From the UHGV virus genome UHGV-0062500: DNA of 10,521 nt. One strand, given 5' to 3'. The notes below the pieces were generated by a model. That model did not search any database, was not told the origin of the DNA, and saw nothing but the letters and a program-made list of their open reading frames with translations. A program made the translations under genes and the position numbers. This DNA comes from a virus. Below, one piece after another: positions 2,368 to 9,821 of the stretch. Every line of letters starts with the position of its first letter. The stretch's first letter is position 1.

Positions 2368-2668
2368 TTTCTTCTCGGTCAAATCGGTGTTTACAATGGC
2401 GACATTTATAACGAAGATTACTAGTCTGCCAATGGACCAATTGCACCTGTTCAGTTCCACATTCAGGGCAATTAGGAACGTTTTTAGAAGCACGTTCGCG
2501 GCGTTCAACCATGACCATTACAGAATCCCAATTAATAGGGCTGCTATAATCATCACAACCATGAATCTTTCTACGCATTTCCAAATCGTCTTCTTCACCG
2601 GCCATAATAATTTTAATTAAACTGGAATTACTTGAAGCTGCAATGTCTTCTAATAAACGCTTTTTCAT
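2354..2668 (-). CDS. Small zinc-ribbon protein, 104 aa
   Basis: ATG at 2668-2666 overlaps the upstream TGA (ATGA) and has GAGGT 7 nt upstream. Contains CPECG...(17 aa)...CRHCKH, a C4 zinc-ribbon signature. N-terminal half is acidic. Confidence 0.6.
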
Positions 2669-3591
2669 TTCAATACCTCAATAGCATTACGTAAACCATT
2701 TGCTTTTGCATTAAGAGCTTTTAACAATTTGGTGTGTTCTGCAATTTGGGCTTCAACTTCAGTCAAACGGGCATTGAGATATTCACGTTCTTCACTCAGA
2801 TTATCAACCTTTTCTACTTTAGGCTCTTTTACAACTGTCTTATATGTATTAGGGTTCTTCAGTTTAATTAGAATGCGTGAACTGTATAACATTGAACCAT
2901 TATCTTCGGTTTCGTCATACATTTCCACTACGTCCATAATTTTTAACATCATGCGGAGTTTATAAGACAACGAACGAATAGTTTTGTTGTGCTTATTAAT
3001 TTCTTTAGCTGTCATGGTGCCGAGATTACGTGAGTAGTAATAAGGAACCTGGATATTAATTAATACTGATGAACCACCTGGCTTGTGTGTTACTTCATCA
3101 GCAATAACCCAATCCTTAACATGAACTGTATTTGTACGGTCATCGCCCGCGGTAAATAGTTTACGAGCATGCTTAAAAAGCATATTCACTTGGTCATTGA
3201 ATTGACAAGCGAATTTATCAGCAAATTTAGTTTCAGGAATGGTAGATAACCAATCAGCCAAATGGGTCTTTTTAACATCGTTAACAATAGTAAATTCAAC
3301 CAAATCAGTTATAGATGTCGCAGATTTAATGAAGCTCGGCTTCATAAAGTTTTTAATGTTATCACGAGCTACAGTAGAAGATAACATACGAGAACGTTTA
3401 AACCATTCAAGCAAATTGCCCAACGAATGAGAATAAGCGTTTTGAGTATCTTTACAGATATGATTTTCCTGGCCAACATATTGAAGGAAATCACGAAGAA
3501 TATTATTAATTACTGCTCTGTGTCCGATCTGATAATTGCGGTGTTTAGTAATAAGACTGTCAAAATAATCAATATAATGTTTACGAGTCAT
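2665..3591 (-). CDS. Hypothetical protein, 308 aa, with C-terminal coiled-coil tail; paralog of the upstream 340-aa protein
   Basis: Track ORF starts on TTG at 3642 and runs through a promoter. The real start is ATG 3591-3589, with a perfect GAGGAG 6 nt upstream. Shares LQYVGQ / EWFKRSR / MDVV blocks with the 340-aa neighbour. Confidence 0.7.
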   Translation of the reverse strand: MTRKHYIDYFDSLITKHRNYQIGHRAVINNILRDFLQYVGQENHICKDTQNAYSHSLGNLLEWFKRSRMLSSTVARDNIKNFMKPSFIKSATSITDLVEFTIVNDVKKTHLADWLSTIPETKFADKFACQFNDQVNMLFKHARKLFTAGDDRTNTVHVKDWVIADEVTHKPGGSSVLINIQVPYYYSRNLGTMTAKEINKHNKTIRSLSYKLRMMLKIMDVVEMYDETEDNGSMLYSSRILIKLKNPNTYKTVVKEPKVEKVDNLSEEREYLNARLTEVEAQIAEHTKLLKALNAKANGLRNAIEVLK

Positions 3592-3619
3592 ATTAATCTC
3601 CTCAGTAGAAAGTAAGAAC

Positions 3620-3649
3620 ATTATACCACATCCTTGTGGCAAAGTAAAC
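3620..3649 (-). promoter_or_regulatory. Sigma70-type early promoter upstream of the 308-aa gene
   Basis: Minus strand GTTTACT-17/18 nt-TATAAT: -35 at 3649-3643, -10 at 3625-3620, followed by the GAGGAG SD and the ATG at 3591. Confidence 0.55.
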
Positions 3650-4671
3650 TAGTTCAGTGCATTTAGTGCATTGTTCAGTTTAGAACGTTGCTTTGTCAGA
3701 TTTTGAACCCTTGACTGAGCTTGTTCTAACGCCTTTTCAGCTTCTAGCACTTCATTGGTCGCTTTAACGAGTTCATCATCTACTGCCTTAAGAGACTTCT
3801 CAATCGCGTCAGCGTGCCATTTTTCTACAGGTTTAAAATTTGAATTTTCAGTAGGAAGAAAACTCACTTTATTAAGTTTACATGCATCTATATTGCTTGA
3901 GCTATACATCCAAAATTTAGGATCGTTTGATAAGTAATTAGATAAATTTAAGTTATCTTGCAATTCCTGCTTTTTCTCTCGCGGGACTTCGTCCTTTCTC
4001 AAAAAATCGTATTTAAATGAAACGATCATATCAAGTTCATATGATGTTGTATCTAACTTAAATCGTTCAAAACGAGGTAAAATCTTAGATTGAACAGCAG
4101 CAACAACATCCATATACTTAAATGCTTCTGTCAGCTGTGATTTAAGACATTCACAAATTGAAAGAGAATTTTTAGTATTAGGCTTAAAGCTAATTCGTGC
4201 AGTTCTATTATTTTCTTTTAACGGTCTTACTTCCATCTGAAGAGTATAACCATCAAATTTCAGGTTCTTTAAGTTAATATCAGAGCCTTTTAATCGACTA
4301 GCAGTAGACAAAATTTGCTTTAATTGTTTACGGAATAGAGCAATAAATCTCCATTCAATACGATAATGATTTGGATTGAAAAATCCAGATGATAAATCGA
4401 CCTTACTTTGACCAACGCCTTGAACAATCAAAGGATTTTTATAATCAATAGTTTTACAGAAATCGGTGAGCTGTTCACGAGCAGTCATTTGTGTAATATA
4501 CCCTGCTTTACTAAAATTACGCACCCATTCACTGCTATTCGTATACTTAAAGTGATGAATAACACGATTAACTTTATCAGGGTCTAAATTATTTTCACAC
4601 AAAAATGTCATAACATCACGAGTATAGCTGGCATTACGAACCATATCTTCAATTTGAGAACGAGTTTTCAT
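3649..4671 (-). CDS. Hypothetical protein, 340 aa, with C-terminal coiled-coil tail
   Basis: ATG at 4671-4669 with AAGGA 5 nt upstream, overlapping the upstream TAA; TAG at 3651-3649. C-terminal 50 aa (LVKATNEVLEAEKALEQAQSRVQNLTKQRSKLNNALNALN) has a heptad-like pattern. Confidence 0.75.
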   Translation of the reverse strand: MKTRSQIEDMVRNASYTRDVMTFLCENNLDPDKVNRVIHHFKYTNSSEWVRNFSKAGYITQMTAREQLTDFCKTIDYKNPLIVQGVGQSKVDLSSGFFNPNHYRIEWRFIALFRKQLKQILSTASRLKGSDINLKNLKFDGYTLQMEVRPLKENNRTARISFKPNTKNSLSICECLKSQLTEAFKYMDVVAAVQSKILPRFERFKLDTTSYELDMIVSFKYDFLRKDEVPREKKQELQDNLNLSNYLSNDPKFWMYSSSNIDACKLNKVSFLPTENSNFKPVEKWHADAIEKSLKAVDDELVKATNEVLEAEKALEQAQSRVQNLTKQRSKLNNALNALN

Positions 4672-4679
4672 GGTGTTCC

Positions 4680-5567
4680 TTAAGATTTAAGTAAATCAAC
4701 GATTTTAATTAATTTTTCACGCTCAGATTTAGCTTTACTACTCAATCCAGATAGTCTGAAAATTTCATCATCATATTGCTGAATAGAAATATTTAGCTCT
4801 TCAATCTGCTTATTAAAATAAGCAATTTGTTCAGAATGTTTTTCATTACTACGAACTGGTACAGGTTTTGTAGGCAATTTAGTTGAACTGGATTCATCCG
4901 GGCGATAAATTAAAATACAACTTGAACCAATCGGACATTTAGCACCAGACACATATTCTAATGTTCCAGCTTCTTTTAAAATTTCAAAAGCTAAACAAAG
5001 ATGATGACCCATATTGGCATAATCTGTAGAGTGAGCTCTGACGTAATAATCATCTCCACGAATACTAAATTTAAAGCATTTAAGGTCTTCTGTATTATTG
5101 GTCTTAAAAATCATTTGTTTATCTAGACCTTTAGCTAATCGAGCGCCTAATGCTAATAATCGTCGTTGATTTTCCCACAAATCAGCAATCATTTGATCGA
5201 ATGACAATTTCGGCATTAGTCTACCATAAAGGTCATATCCTTTATTATAATTGCGAAGAATTTCACTCGCGTTAATACGAGACAACGCTCCAATTTTATT
5301 AAGGGCTTTCATGATGCGATTAGATAAACCCATTCCAGACCCGTTTGTTCGTTGTAAATGTTTATCTAATCCAAATCCAATATCAACTTTAAACTTATCT
5401 AATATTTCAGCATGAACATCTCTGTCAATAACATTCAAATCCAAAGTTGGGTTAAATCTATGAAAAAATTTATCTGGCTCTCCACGACGAAGTACAGTCC
5501 ATTCATTCAATTTTTTATTAACTAAAGATTTAATTACTGCATTGACATTATTAATTACTACTGACAT
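4680..5567 (-). CDS. Hypothetical protein, 295 aa, with C-terminal helical tail
   Basis: Track start is TTG at 5588. The first ATG (5567-5565, MSVVINNV...) has GAGGA 4 nt upstream and lies 8 nt after the upstream TGA. TAA at 4682-4680. Confidence 0.7.
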   Translation of the reverse strand: MSVVINNVNAVIKSLVNKKLNEWTVLRRGEPDKFFHRFNPTLDLNVIDRDVHAEILDKFKVDIGFGLDKHLQRTNGSGMGLSNRIMKALNKIGALSRINASEILRNYNKGYDLYGRLMPKLSFDQMIADLWENQRRLLALGARLAKGLDKQMIFKTNNTEDLKCFKFSIRGDDYYVRAHSTDYANMGHHLCLAFEILKEAGTLEYVSGAKCPIGSSCILIYRPDESSSTKLPTKPVPVRSNEKHSEQIAYFNKQIEELNISIQQYDDEIFRLSGLSSKAKSEREKLIKIVDLLKS

Positions 5568-6037: not shown

Positions 6038-6565
6038 TTATGCGAGTACCGTCTTTAACCGTTCTTCAAACTTCCGAAGAGTATTTTGGCGTTCAGCTCT
6101 TTGCTTTTTGTAAGTTTCAATACGCTCTGAAATGAGAGTGTATCGTTCATTTACTGATTCTTTCATAAAATCAGGAATTTCACGAGAAGCTTTAATCTCA
6201 TCAAATTTATCAATAACAGCTTGCTCTTCAGCAATTAAGTTATCATACATTAAAATATCTTTCTTGATGAACTCAATATCTTCTTGAGTTACACGAGATA
6301 ATTTAGATGCTTTATCCTTTTTGTACTGTTCGTTAGTATCACGAGACCAGTGTAATGTACGATTTTTATTCGTATTCTTGTAAATTTCTACAATACCGAT
6401 CTCATCAATAATAACGATCCAATTCCAACGGGATTTGTAAATTTGTCCTCCATCAACAGTGATTTCACCTCCGATTGAGATGTCATTAAAGAACTTGCTT
6501 TGCGCTTCAGATTTAAATTTACCATCATTGTAATTTACCAGGTTGAAAATATCTTTAGCGTTCAT
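6038..6565 (-). CDS. Hypothetical protein, 175 aa
   Basis: Track start is TTG at 6625, inside the promoter. The real start is ATG 6565-6563 with GGAGG 8 nt upstream, located just downstream of an early promoter. TAA at 6040-6038. Confidence 0.7.
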   Translation of the reverse strand: MNAKDIFNLVNYNDGKFKSEAQSKFFNDISIGGEITVDGGQIYKSRWNWIVIIDEIGIVEIYKNTNKNRTLHWSRDTNEQYKKDKASKLSRVTQEDIEFIKKDILMYDNLIAEEQAVIDKFDEIKASREIPDFMKESVNERYTLISERIETYKKQRAERQNTLRKFEERLKTVLA

Positions 6566-6593
6566 TTTGTATTCCTCCGTAGTTGATAGTTGT

Positions 6594-6622
6594 ATAGTAC
6601 CACAGAGGAACGGTCTTGTAAA
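6594..6622 (-). promoter_or_regulatory. Sigma70-type early promoter upstream of the 175-aa gene
   Basis: Minus strand aGTTGTTTACAa-17 nt-TGgTACTAT (extended -10): -35 at 6622-6617, -10 at 6599-6594. The flanking 24-nt and 12-nt blocks are identical to the promoter at 8729-8757. Confidence 0.6.
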
Positions 6623-6625
6623 CAA

Positions 6626-6928
6626 CTAAAAGAAACTTCTTTCACAATTTTTTCCACTGAACCAGGCGCTCACTGCTTTCTTAGTCTCAGGAGCAGTGTT
6701 ATCCATAAACCATTCAAAGGCAGCCTTTTTATGATTCTGGAGGGCTTCTCGGGCTTTAATCTGCTCACGGTCTATTAACACTAACATATGAGCCTTTCTT
6801 GTCACCAGGGGCTTTTTATGATTTTTTGAATATTCCCAATCATTTGTCCATCGCATCGTTGTTGCGAATTGAAGTACAGCTTCTTTAATCTTAGTTTCGT
6901 AAATTTCACGAGCCTTTGAGTATAACAT
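6626..6928 (-). CDS. Hypothetical protein, about 100 aa
   Basis: ATG at 6928-6926 is preceded by GGAGG (spacing 5); the track ATG at 6940 has no SD. TAG at 6628-6626. Confidence 0.6.
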   Translation of the reverse strand: MLYSKAREIYETKIKEAVLQFATTMRWTNDWEYSKNHKKPLVTRKAHMLVLIDREQIKAREALQNHKKAAFEWFMDNTAPETKKAVSAWFSGKNCERSFF

Positions 6929-7010: not shown

Positions 7011-7729
7011 TTAGGATTCTTCTAAATGTCTTTTCTGAAAAGTTGATACCATACTACGATACGGTTCATTTGGATATCCGTGTTTTATAGCTTCCTTTGT
7101 AAATTTTCTCCATCCATATTTAGTTTCTTTCCAAAGCTCGAATAATTCATCTTCATACTGCCATATAGTTAAATGAGAACGCTTTGCAGCTTTAATTCCA
7201 TTAATATGCTTTTCTTTTACTGTAGGATTACTTAGTTTCTTTTTAATAATATTACTAACTTTTCTAACAAAAACTGGGTCCTTATATCGTTGCGAAGTTT
7301 TTATTGAAGTGTTTAATTTAGCTTCCGGCGTGGATGTGACCTCTTTCATCTTTTTCTTCATATGTTGTATATGATTAGGATTTTTCCATAAATTTATAGA
7401 ATGCTTTTTGCATTTTATCCTAGTTTCATCTGCAACCTTTCCTCCTTCACCCCCGTATGACAGGTTAACACAGTTTTTTCCATATTTCAATTTACCTGCC
7501 ATGATATATAATATTTCAGCTTGTACCATTTTATCATAATTATCAAAAACTTCTAAAACCGTTTTTGATAATATGTGGTCATTTGACACTTTTACACGTT
7601 CTATATAATTTCCACTACCAACATACGAATCATTGATGTTATTAGTTATATGTCGACCATAATAGTATTTCTTAATACCTGTCTTTAAATTTAATATTTC
7701 AGTTTTATAGATAGTAAAATATTTTTCAT
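7011..7729 (-). pseudogene. Seg-like GIY-YIG homing endonuclease, about 239 codons, disrupted by a 1-nt frameshift at an A5 run immediately after the start codon
   Basis: ATG at 7729-7727 overlaps the ATPase stop (ATGA) but that frame stops after 12 codons. The adjacent frame is open for 46 codons (7730-7590) with no ATG/GTG/TTG and joins the 192-aa track ORF. With six instead of five A at 7726-7722 the protein would read MKKYFTIYKTEILNLKTGIKKYYYGRHITNNINDSYVGSGNYIERVKVSNDH..., GIY-YIG-like and alignable to I-TevI NNKVYVGSAKDFEKRWKRH. The C-terminal half has repeated NUMOD-like basic motifs. Locally AT-rich, with no SD before the GTG at 7589. Confidence 0.45.
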
Positions 7730-8694
7730 TTTAATAATACCGTTTCAGCAATTTCTTCCCAACCGTTTTTGTCGGTCATAATAAAGTCAGCAAGATAAAG
7801 CGCAGTACGCAGTGAAACATTGCGTAAACGATTAACATTGACTTTCATCCATGATAATGCTTTATAAGTTTCTTCATCAGAAAGACCGCGCTTTTGCATC
7901 ATGTCAGTTGAAAGAATAACATCTTCAACCCTGACCATAATTTCTTCATTAGTGTGAACACCCAAATCCAAATAAACTGAGCGGGACACTAATGCTTGTA
8001 AATGTGGAGCAAGTTTAGTACCACGGTCTAATTCGCGGTCAATGTCAACGTTTGTGATAAAAACAATCGTTCCTTTAAATTCAAACTCACGCTCAATGCC
8101 TTTTTCTTCTAAGTAAGAAGATGCAGTGCTCCAGCAGACTTTACGGGTCTCTCCAGTGTCCAGAGCAGCTTTCAGAAGATTAAGAATGTCCATATCAGAG
8201 AAAACATCCACATCATCAATCAAAAGGACAGAATTCTCTTCACGATTATTCCAAAGCTGCTCATAAAGACCGATACCAGAGATTTTACCATTAATGCTTT
8301 TATACTCAATGTATCCAATATCATTTGCTTTATTTAAAGCTTTATCTAAAGAATACGTTTTACCAATGCCTGCTGCTCCTGAGATAATTAATGAACGAAT
8401 GTTTCCGTTAATAATACCATTCGTCATCATTCCCATAACATTAAATCTTTTATTAATGCGGGTTTTCATATCTTCATATGATTCTTTAACTTCTTCAACT
8501 TTTACACCATCATATGAAATGTCTGATTTGTAAACCCAAACACCGCGACGCTTACCGTCAATTTCAACAAAAACTTTACCATCTCCTTGCGCATCTACCG
8601 GAGCATTATCTGGGAACCATTCGCCTAAGAGCTCAAAAGTTCCAGAGATTTCTTTACCGAAGTAAATACCCTTATTGATAGTTACAGTTTTCAT
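7726..8694 (-). CDS. P-loop (AAA+-like) ATPase, 322 aa
   Basis: Track ORF starts at 8811 and reads through a terminator and promoter. The real start is ATG 8694-8692 with GGAG 7 nt upstream. Walker A ISGAAGIGKTYS, Walker B VLLIDDVD, sensor-1-like FITNVD; about 100-aa N-terminal domain before the P-loop. Confidence 0.8.
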   Translation of the reverse strand: MKTVTINKGIYFGKEISGTFELLGEWFPDNAPVDAQGDGKVFVEIDGKRRGVWVYKSDISYDGVKVEEVKESYEDMKTRINKRFNVMGMMTNGIINGNIRSLIISGAAGIGKTYSLDKALNKANDIGYIEYKSINGKISGIGLYEQLWNNREENSVLLIDDVDVFSDMDILNLLKAALDTGETRKVCWSTASSYLEEKGIEREFEFKGTIVFITNVDIDRELDRGTKLAPHLQALVSRSVYLDLGVHTNEEIMVRVEDVILSTDMMQKRGLSDEETYKALSWMKVNVNRLRNVSLRTALYLADFIMTDKNGWEEIAETVLLK

Positions 8695-8728
8695 TTTATT
8701 CTCCAAATCCGTATCAGTTGATAGTTGT

Positions 8729-8757
8729 ATAGTACCATAAAGCTTTATGCTTGTAAA
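8729..8757 (-). promoter_or_regulatory. Sigma70-type early promoter upstream of the ATPase gene
   Basis: Minus strand TTTACA (8757-8752) - 17 nt - TGgTACTAT (8734-8729), with an A/T-rich block upstream. Sits just downstream of the terminator, followed by the GGAG SD and ATG at 8694. Confidence 0.6.
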
Positions 8758-8777
8758 CAACTTTGTGAAAAATTTTT

Positions 8778-8807: not shown

Positions 8808-9821
8808 TCATTTATAATAACTTCGATGGTTTTCAAGATAGACCTTCTCAAGGAAGTCATCCCAGAAACTCATGTCTACTTTTTGTTGCATACCGTTCTT
8901 AGAAGCTTCAGTAGATGCTGCTTCTACTTGATCGACCACATCTTCCAAAAACTCTTGGACTGTTTTAAATGGATGTTTACCCAACTTCACGTCGAGAATA
9001 AATGGAGCATCTTGGAGTGGATAAATCAAGTCGCCAGTTTTGTAAATTTCCAATAGTTGAAGTCCACCACGACAAGCATGGCTCAGAGCTTTCCAGTCAA
9101 TACCTTCATTGGCTTCAGCCTTACGAGCACGTTCACCATATTCAGCATCTAATTTGTTCAGTGACTGCTTAAGCTCAATAAGAGAAAGCGTTGTCTGATA
9201 TTTACGACCCAACACAGTGTAGAACGTTTGTGGGCCTGTTTTCTCATGATTATGGAACACCCATTCACAGAATTCGTTTTCTGGAAGACGATGCTTAATA
9301 TCTTCAACTTTAGTGCGACGCTGCTTAATAGAACCATCTTCTTGGTAATCAACCCATTGCTCAGGGATTTGATTAACTACTTTCAATACATCACGTAATG
9401 CAGCCAAACGAGAACCCTTGACACCGTATTTAGAAGCTTGCTTACGGACATATCCTAAATATGATTTCATGTTAGTCGTATAAAAACGAGAACGGTTGTC
9501 TTGAATAAACTTCCACACATCAGGCAAATCAGATTTAACCACTAGTTCAGGTGGAGTGTGAAGCATATCTAATGCTACAGTTTCACCATCTGCTGCTAAT
9601 TTAAAGAAATATTTAAGACTGTATAGTTCATGGTCAATATCATCTTTAGTGTTTTTAGATGATGTGTTGTTAGTGTTTTTACTCATATGCTCTTTAACAT
9701 TTCCGATAAGAATATCGCGAGCAGAAGGAACAAAGATTTCTTTAAAATCTACATCAGATTCTGGGGTAGAAGTTCCATAAAGATGACTACCAAAATAGCT
9801 TTTCATTACTGTTTTCATCAT
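8808..9821 (-). CDS. Predicted Pol-beta-superfamily nucleotidyltransferase, 337 aa
   Basis: ATG at 9821-9819 overlaps the upstream TGA. N-terminal YFGSHLYGTSTPESDVDF is a canonical minimal-NTase motif (G-S-x10-D-x-D), with a candidate third acidic residue in TVALDML. C-terminal about 250 aa is helical. Intrinsic terminator immediately downstream. Confidence 0.75.
   Translation of the reverse strand: MMKTVMKSYFGSHLYGTSTPESDVDFKEIFVPSARDILIGNVKEHMSKNTNNTSSKNTKDDIDHELYSLKYFFKLAADGETVALDMLHTPPELVVKSDLPDVWKFIQDNRSRFYTTNMKSYLGYVRKQASKYGVKGSRLAALRDVLKVVNQIPEQWVDYQEDGSIKQRRTKVEDIKHRLPENEFCEWVFHNHEKTGPQTFYTVLGRKYQTTLSLIELKQSLNKLDAEYGERARKAEANEGIDWKALSHACRGGLQLLEIYKTGDLIYPLQDAPFILDVKLGKHPFKTVQEFLEDVVDQVEAASTEASKNGMQQKVDMSFWDDFLEKVYLENHRSYYK

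Follow-up and report, generated by a model that had tools for sequence, protein, structure and literature searches.

Remote kinship among NrdC.3, NrdC.4, NrdC.5 and probably NrdC.6 of T4-like phages suggests a diverging family of putative counter-defence proteins with coiled-coil tails

T4 is the best-studied phage, and its nrdC.1–nrdC.11 block is still nearly all annotated as 'hypothetical'. A function has been published for one gene of this block, nrdC.5. Srikant, Guegler and Laub (eLife 2022, PMC9391042) described a T4 clone with compensatory deletions, nrdC.5 being lost, that cannot plate on ECOR17. Plating was regained on ECOR17 with dsr1 deleted, plasmid-borne dsr1 shielded MG1655 from the same clone, and T4 nrdC.5 alone, supplied from a plasmid, restored the infectivity of the clone on hosts carrying Dsr1 (PMC9391042). 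The defence protein Dsr1 (E. coli WP_029488749.1 in a 2026 preprint, PMC12803255) has a SIR2 domain and a TPR sensor, which is reported in that preprint to recognise phage major capsid proteins; DSR1 is still termed poorly characterised in later papers. The same gene and its neighbours are considered here in the virus genome UHGV-0062500, from which a stretch of 10,521 nucleotides (the window) was analysed. An original prediction, made from the sequence alone, had noted three consecutive proteins with similar C-terminal tails, two of them tandem paralogs, and had proposed that they share a common partner or assembly. On balance, the locus seems to hold an evolving array of counter-defence proteins whose diversifying bodies would bind their targets and whose coiled-coil tails would serve oligomerisation.

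The window corresponds to the nrdC region of a Tequatrovirus. Tequatrovirus (T4-like) genomes by the hundred match the 10.5 kb at 95–97%, gene 49, pin and nrdC through nrdC.11 span it, and all genes are on the minus strand. Open reading frames (ORFs) were named from the RB3, T2, VR5 and T4 annotations. The three ORFs of the original prediction and their lengths were correct:

4680–5567, minus strand: NrdC.6 ortholog, 295 amino acids (phrog_2257, E 5.6e-152)
3649–4671, minus strand: NrdC.5 ortholog, 340 amino acids (Pfam DUF7235, phrog_2351)
2665–3591, minus strand: NrdC.3 ortholog, 308 amino acids, RB3-type allele (phrog_1435), with its ATG behind GAGGAG

All three match their PHROG families end to end (E 1e-116 to 1e-164). 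The NrdC.6 protein is 97.6% identical to RB3 'nrdC.6' and shares 251 of 274 residues with the T4 reference. The 340-amino-acid protein matches the DUF7235 hidden Markov model over its full length and above the gathering score (401 bits against a cut-off of 30, E 5.1e-120, residues 1–340, profile positions 1–307), and 324 of its 340 residues are identical in T4 NrdC.5 (NP_049703). Its gene occupies the position expected of an ortholog, flanked by nrdC.6 and nrdC.4/nrdC.3 just as it is in T4 and RB3. The NrdC.3 protein is 99.7% identical to that of RB3 but shares only 186 of 306 residues with that of T4. NrdC.3 to NrdC.8 carry a 'thioredoxin' label in many GenBank phage records; no thioredoxin-family match was found for these proteins, and the label has evidently spread from the gene-name prefix 'nrdC'.

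Compared directly, NrdC.5 and NrdC.3 of the window do not look related. The best BLASTP match between the 340- and 308-amino-acid proteins has an E of 0.76, and their Smith-Waterman score of 45 is at shuffle level (38.0 ± 5.6, z 1.24, p 0.13). The shared blocks on which their paralogy had been proposed were judged in a profile-guided alignment – MDVV stands in the same columns in both, but VQGVGQ/LQYVGQ and NPNHY.../NAYSH... are about 65–85 columns apart. These could thus be unrelated early proteins, each with a generic coiled-coil end and a similar composition. The 295-amino-acid protein also scores at shuffle level against both of the others, two-thirds of the proposed blocks are misaligned, and the product of a fourth gene, NrdC.8, has a similar tail without detectable homology.

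Family profiles contradict chance similarity. In T4, RB3 and most relatives another gene, nrdC.4 (333 amino acids), sits between nrdC.3 and nrdC.5, and its product, which ends in a tail of like kind, links the families. NrdC.3 and NrdC.4 are clearly paralogs: BLASTP aligns 226 residues at E 2e-6, the shuffle z is 10 and hhalign gives 98%. With family alignments built from Tequatrovirus, Mosigvirus, Gaprivervirus and Dhakavirus orthologs, the NrdC.5 profile matched the combined NrdC.3 and NrdC.4 profile with 95.5% hhalign probability (E 1.6e-8, 228 columns), and with 95.9% when further members were added. Profile-profile matches between the families cover 158–228 columns (E 5.5e-6 to 1.6e-8) and lie mostly in the non-coiled bodies. 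The 228-column match runs from residue 50 of NrdC.5 to the C-terminus, so that the tails are included in the homology. Kinship of NrdC.5 with NrdC.3 and NrdC.4 is therefore highly likely and a purely compositional resemblance very unlikely. The paralogy of the two window proteins holds at the level of family profiles, although the pairwise grounds first offered for it fail, and it is far more remote than those blocks implied.

Remote members point the same way. When 1.84 billion cluster representatives were searched with a profile of NrdC.5 and NrdC.3, only 15 proteins reached E <= 0.001, including NrdC.4-type proteins and a remote member of 328 amino acids (P0107) that matches the combined profile at 93%. 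Klebsiella Jiaodavirus phages carry relatives of P0107 that are 22–25% identical, and one of these, KP1_67 (324 amino acids), matches the combined profile at 96.7% (E 4.5e-10), is encoded at the syntenic locus and has a helical C-terminal tail. Such independent members, retaining the layout at a syntenic locus, are hard to reconcile with chance. A search for related loci with P0107 found no relative. Together with the small number of search matches, P0107 and the KP1_67 protein show that the family is old within the Tevenvirinae and essentially limited to them. A mixed alignment of all four families, used as a homology query, retrieved mostly T4-type NrdC.5 and four Mosigvirus NrdC.6-like proteins.

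Some weak matches were set aside. Residues 29–85 of NrdC.3 resemble the SAM-like N-terminal domain of tyrosine recombinases (Pfam E 0.073, NCBIfam E 0.0015), a match found in just one of 21 family members and therefore rejected as chance. The NrdC.6 profile matched only glutathione S-transferases among PDB sequences (E > 0.5), also by chance. Proteins of about 330 amino acids from phages Melville, CBH8 and Merlin, found with Foldseek, may be further relatives and were not used as evidence.

NrdC.3, NrdC.4, NrdC.5 and probably NrdC.6 would thus belong to a single family of accessory genes in T4-like phages, which are early, are not essential and diverge fast. From the N-terminus, the predicted layout consists of helices with a conserved '(K)sR.LS...A.d.L.nF.K' motif; a long helix, 'F..eF..N...L...A.RL..GD.R', followed by a short beta-meander; a helix, '...L..AL..MD.VE', and a variable, probably disordered linker; and a C-terminal amphipathic helix of about 50 residues (6.5–7 heptads) ending in ...L..A...LK.

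NrdC.6 is the most distant candidate for membership. Pairwise comparisons and single-family profiles gave no significant similarity between it and NrdC.3, NrdC.4 or NrdC.5, and its relatives were not retrieved at E <= 0.001 when the NrdC.5 and NrdC.3 profile was run against the 1.84 billion representatives. Against the enlarged NrdC.3/4/5 profile, however, the NrdC.6 profile aligned over residues 73–149 with an hhalign score of 39.8 (probability 61.5%, P 7.8e-5), a stretch that holds the motifs '...ALNKiGaLSR.NA..ILrNynKg' and 'EN.rRLLALgARLa.G.DkQM'. None of 300 shuffled controls reached this score (maximum 19.7 in 150 column shuffles and 34.0 in 150 shuffles of twelve-column blocks), and the reversed profile gave P 0.46; these controls again argue against chance. 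AlphaFold2 modelled NrdC.5 and NrdC.6, at low confidence, with matching successions of secondary-structure elements – N-terminal helices, long helix, beta-strands, helix, strand, linker and tail helix – and a linker motif of the Mosigvirus NrdC.6-like proteins, ALKDLIDELN, resembles TLEDLI.NLN in the NrdC.4 linker. The 295-amino-acid protein probably shares more than its tail with the other two, and a place for NrdC.6 in the superfamily, as a remote member, is reasonably likely.

The tails themselves, given here as nucleotide positions, were much as originally described for all three proteins:

4683–4844, minus strand: tail of NrdC.6, residues 242–295, with a kink at Gly274
3652–3822, minus strand: tail of NrdC.5, residues 284–340, without Pro or Gly
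2668–2814, minus strand: tail of NrdC.3, residues 260–308

The last 52 residues of each protein form a single unbroken heptad register with 0–2 Pro or Gly. Its a and d positions are 80–93% hydrophobic (80% in NrdC.6, 93% in NrdC.5 and 80% in NrdC.3), compared to 19–27% elsewhere. Ala, Leu, Glu and Lys make up 40–58% of the tails and 26–30% of the bodies. A heptad score was also calculated in a 28-residue window by an ad-hoc, home-made method that is not a calibrated predictor; by this measure the three tails peak at 0.66–0.80, the NrdC.8 tail at 0.68 and the other proteins of the window at 0.62 at most, and shuffled tails equal the observed score in 0.2–1.4% of trials. AlphaFold2 was run with 20 sequences of the NrdC.5 and NrdC.3 families for the 340-amino-acid protein and with five sequences for the 295-amino-acid protein. 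It predicts one helix at residues 284–339 of NrdC.5 (pLDDT 72–88) and two in NrdC.6, at 242–271 and 277–294 (pLDDT 70–77), and these tail helices are the only confident parts of the two models. The tails are very likely coiled coils.

Conservation of the tails was compared to that of the bodies, taking the last 50 residues as the tail. Tail identity exceeds body identity in NrdC.6 across genera (56–68% and 28–45%), in NrdC.4 (56–64% and 41–51%), between the NrdC.3 allelic types, whose bodies diverge more than their tails (70–82% and 54–60%), and, within the NrdC.5 group, between NrdC.5 and P0099 (66% and 37%). Within orthologous groups the tails are thus 56–82% identical, while the tails of NrdC.3 and NrdC.4, the sole comparison made between groups, are 23–35% identical. 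This pattern is the one expected of inherited, group-specific coiled coils under purifying selection, and not of a recently shuffled common cassette.

Similar tails could allow the neighbouring proteins to bundle together or to dock on one shared partner, forming a single complex, as the original prediction had it. Across the families the tails have equal length and the same register counted from the C-terminus (a heptad register common to NrdC.3, NrdC.4 and NrdC.5), and they end in ...[KR]..L..A...LK. The genes adjoin one another and have early promoters, and NrdC.6 and NrdC.8 are each found in 742 phage records. Yet the tails belong to a homology that runs the length of the proteins, and the low identity of NrdC.3 and NrdC.4 tails, set against that within groups, is expected of coils that each recognise their own kind. 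Paralog content differs between the window, Mosigvirus, Gaprivervirus and Dhakavirus, paralogs being lost independently of each other, and NrdC.5 alone was sufficient, in trans, to rescue the T4 deletion mutant (PMC9391042, where the text does not give the exact extent of the deletion). A common partner or hetero-assembly is accordingly disfavoured and seems improbable. For homo-oligomerisation driven by each tail, the chances appear about even.

One sequence bears on the tail of NrdC.6 in T4 itself. In the T4 reference NC_000866, the 3' end of nrdC.6 (L007:9997–10160) has a single-nucleotide deletion, GAGCTG-ATATT as compared to GAGCTGAATATT. The resulting frameshift strips most of the coiled-coil tail from the annotated product of 275 amino acids, and the +1 frame retains a nearly unaltered tail sequence. 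The deletion either arose recently in the laboratory strain or is an error of sequencing.

The array has a varied history. Within Tequatrovirus NrdC.3 occurs as two allelic types that are about 61% identical (2665–3591 in the window and L007:6934–7860), and Mosigvirus has a third type at about 77%. Genes around nrdC.3 in the window are 95–99% identical to T4 (95% in NrdC.5 and 99% in NrdC.8). Paralog sets differ by genus – Mosigvirus has no NrdC.4 type, Gaprivervirus and Dhakavirus have no NrdC.3 type, and the window has no NrdC.4 – and paralogs have been gained and lost independently. A protein of 299 amino acids from metagenome and Logan assemblies (P0056) joins residues of about 146–270 of NrdC.5 to NrdC.3 from '...NMLFKHARKL' on, which indicates a natural hybrid formed by deletion or fusion between array paralogs. 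A second composite, P0103 (173 amino acids, L008:120–641), joins 120 unrelated N-terminal residues to a tail nearly identical to that of NrdC.5, and the promoter and start of nrdC.4 come next. Its only source is one metagenome contig of 803 bp, the first 479 nt of which match none of the compared loci, and the body of the protein had no tblastn match in the phage collection. Either a genuine swap of modules or a chimeric assembly could explain this sequence; because of the latter possibility it was not used as evidence for a mobile tail module.

How nrdC.4 was lost from the window can be read at the junction between nrdC.5 and nrdC.3:

3648–3620, minus strand: T4 early-type promoter GTTTAC-N17-TG-TATAAT upstream of nrdC.3
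3581–3588, minus strand: deletion junction with an 8-nt microhomology, ACTCGTAA

All of the best-matching phage records have about 1 kb more at this point (3581–3648 in the window; compare L007:7861–8973), encoding NrdC.4. The window follows the intergenic region between nrdC.5 and nrdC.4 of T4 up to ATGACTCGTAA and T4 nrdC.3 thereafter, which places the crossover within the 8-nt ACTCGTAA, located in the Thr-Arg-Lys/Asn codons (ACT CGT AA) that nrdC.4 and nrdC.3 have in common at their 5' ends. From this arrangement, nrdC.4 was lost by clean recombination at ACTCGTAA, and nrdC.3 and nrdC.5 are neighbours here because the paralog that bridges them was deleted. An early promoter had been noted between the two genes and is indeed present. 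T4 has the identical sequence upstream of nrdC.4, so the intergenic promoter is the former nrdC.4 promoter, which now drives nrdC.3; the gene lies behind both this promoter and the nrdC.4 ribosome-binding site.

Changes of these kinds – duplication, divergence, deletion or fusion between paralogs – are the means by which the array evolves. Since NrdC.5 is published as overcoming Dsr1, its related neighbours become candidate counter-defence genes. The NrdC.5 ortholog of the window probably acts against Dsr1, an activity known for the T4 protein only, and a counter-defence role of NrdC.3 and NrdC.6 is put forward tentatively. Searches with Pfam, PDB profiles, PADLOC and NCBIfam detected no enzyme or known domain in the four NrdC families, and for this reason the proteins are taken to be stoichiometric inhibitors. 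Under the proposed mechanism the variable body of each protein would recognise a host immune protein, presumably by direct binding – for NrdC.5 this would be Dsr1, an NADase of the SIR2 type that has a TPR sensor. The tail would turn each protein into a homo-oligomer that gains avidity against oligomeric immune proteins, and paralogs and divergent alleles may cover different immune proteins or variants of them. The 61% alleles of NrdC.3, the genus-specific paralog sets, the deletion of nrdC.4 and the P0056 fusion lend support to a role in such an arms race.

The conserved helix could instead be the inhibitor itself, inserted for instance into the TPR solenoid of Dsr1- or Avs7-type sensors, with the bodies as accessories. 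The tails are the best conserved parts in most groups. In NrdC.6 the last 59 residues, about one-fifth of the protein, hold more than one-third of the columns invariant between Tequatrovirus and Mosigvirus, surface positions included. Helical or C-terminal peptides are common ligands of TPR domains. Dsr1 has a sensor of this type (PMC12803255). However, helices that bundle with one another show a perfect a/d heptad pattern more typically than peptide ligands do, and the bodies too are conserved enough to define families across genera. The tail as an active, sensor-plugging element is an attractive idea, but such a role seems unlikely. A broader version, also unlikely though slightly less so, is that the C-terminal helices form a family-wide interaction module directed at immune sensors of the host, which might dock into TPR solenoids such as those of Dsr1/Avs7-type receptors, or that the paralogs mix into combinatorial hetero-oligomers. 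Were either true, the array would be one multivalent, reconfigurable inhibitor of several pattern-recognition receptors.

A role as virion proteins was also considered, since the capsid-targeting sequence (CTS) of T4 internal proteins had been cited as a precedent for the shared module. The NrdC proteins would then be packaged by way of this module and injected with the DNA. The internal proteins IPI and IPIII are counter-defence proteins, and the N-termini of NrdC.3, NrdC.4 and NrdC.5 (MKTRKHYIDY, MTRNEYIKS and MKTRSQIEDM) loosely resemble the CTS of IPII and IPIII, MKTYQEFIAE. The analogy breaks down in that the proposed module is C-terminal and the CTS N-terminal, and that the (L/I)xE cleavage motif of the CTS follows none of the NrdC N-termini; the three window proteins start with MSVVINNVNA, MKTRSQIEDM and MTRKHYIDYF, without a terminal I-x-E. 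Moreover, nrdC.3 is read from an early-type promoter and NrdC.5 functions when produced in the host cytoplasm. No late promoter came to light, though none was sought. A text search of the literature, which did not extend to supplementary tables, found no report of NrdC proteins in virions. Packaging by this route is extremely unlikely. The N-terminal likeness, M(K)TR.EYI... (encoded in the window at 3649–4671 and 2665–3591, and at L001:4047–5048) as compared to the CTS of ipII and ipIII at locus L010, is a motif too short to evaluate and is recorded as a lead only.

Several observations weigh against the reading of the locus as a counter-defence array. Functional data are limited to NrdC.5, and its mechanism is unpublished. 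Besides the shuffle-level pairwise scores given above, PHROGs and Pfam hold the NrdC families apart, and the membership of NrdC.6 depends on 77 columns at an hhalign probability of 61.5%. In the AlphaFold2 models the bodies have a pLDDT below 50 (model means 40.7 and 45.4), and fold searches with them are for this reason uninformative; Foldseek against BFVD with both of these low-confidence models gave sequence-driven matches with template modelling scores of about 0.2, to the proteins' own orthologs and to the above proteins of Melville, CBH8 and Merlin. The NrdC.5 and NrdC.3 profile had no match among PDB sequences, the three proteins had none among PADLOC defence-protein models at E <= 0.01, and the NrdC proteins had no meaningful match in NCBIfam and no similarity to any anti-defence model. 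Tail and body are about equally conserved in the NrdC.5 orthologs of Gaprivervirus and Dhakavirus. Finally, most of the tail is missing from nrdC.6 of the T4 reference, which implies that laboratory T4 can do without either the tail or the gene altogether.

Other features of the window lie outside the trio. Upstream of it is a further gene whose product has a tail:

6038–6565, minus strand: NrdC.8, 175 amino acids, with a heptad tail ...RIETYKKQRAERQNTLRKFEERLKTVLA (score 0.68 at residues 144–175)

NrdC.8 was tried as a fifth family member, and hhalign against the NrdC.6, NrdC.5 and NrdC.3/4 profiles gave no support (P >= 0.095). It is unusually conserved, being identical in the majority of about 740 phage records, a record count equal to that of NrdC.6 (742). 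An early-promoter-like block, GTTTACAAG ... TGGTACTATAC, occurs in two copies that are 75–93% identical (6581–6642 and 8716–8777), upstream of nrdC.8 and nrdC.10; repeated promoter blocks of this kind could serve as recombination substrates. A direct repeat of 65 nt with 83% identity (638–702 and 851–915) covers the 3' ends of two adjacent genes and the sequence downstream, with the result that a DUF7279 ORF of 58 amino acids (655–831) and pin (868–1353) both end in the 15 residues MIRQYKRLH(R/Q)MFYNT.

Between nrdC.9 and nrdC.10 is an ORF of 172–192 amino acids (7011–7589, minus strand) where the T4 reference has only about 95 nt. At this position RB3 has an ORF annotated as a 'putative site-specific intron-like DNA endonuclease'; the ORF of the window has no Pfam match at E <= 0.01. 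NrdC.10 and NrdC.11 (7726–8694 and 8808–9821, minus strand) are a P-loop protein with weak AAA/STAND-NTPase matches below gathering scores and an RlaP-type nucleotidyltransferase (E 9.3e-11), and the adjacent pair is conserved across the T4-like genera examined.

New in this analysis are the unifying architecture, the family relationship and the nomination of NrdC.3, NrdC.4 and NrdC.6 for counter-defence; the genes themselves are known T4 genes. Kinship with NrdC.5 makes three orphans (NrdC.3, NrdC.4 and probably NrdC.6) concrete candidates and offers a testable domain model, a diversifying body with a conserved coiled-coil tail. The locus also illustrates how such an array evolves – a deletion at microhomology, a fusion of paralogs, 61% alleles beside neighbours of 95–99% identity, and paralog sets specific to genera. 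The gain is moderate, as no new kind of system is involved and the mechanism is inferred.

Among known systems the closest is T4 NrdC.5 itself (PMC9391042), of which the 340-amino-acid protein of the window is the ortholog, at the same locus and with a full-length DUF7235 match. The published work on it contains no mechanism, domain analysis or relatives; the tail and the kinship with NrdC.3, NrdC.4 and NrdC.6 come from the present comparisons. In the databases phrog_1435 (NrdC.3 and NrdC.4), phrog_2351 (NrdC.5), phrog_2257 (NrdC.6) and Pfam PF26897 and PF26899 are separate families of 'unknown function', which the profile comparisons join.

Two other systems invite comparison. DSAD1 of phage SPbeta neutralises a defence-associated sirtuin by binding the sensor region of oligomeric DSR2, and provides a working analogy for the action of NrdC.5 on Dsr1. 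No sequence relation between DSAD1 and NrdC.5 was found, their targets differ (DSR2, as opposed to Dsr1 with its TPR sensor), and direct binding by NrdC.5 is presumed. IPI, IPII and IPIII of T4 are likewise a small set of accessory proteins with a short terminal module, and at least IPI and IPIII act in counter-defence. Their module is N-terminal, has about 10 residues, ends at a protease site and is a packaging signal, whereas that of the NrdC proteins is a C-terminal heptad helix of about 50 residues within a full-length homology.

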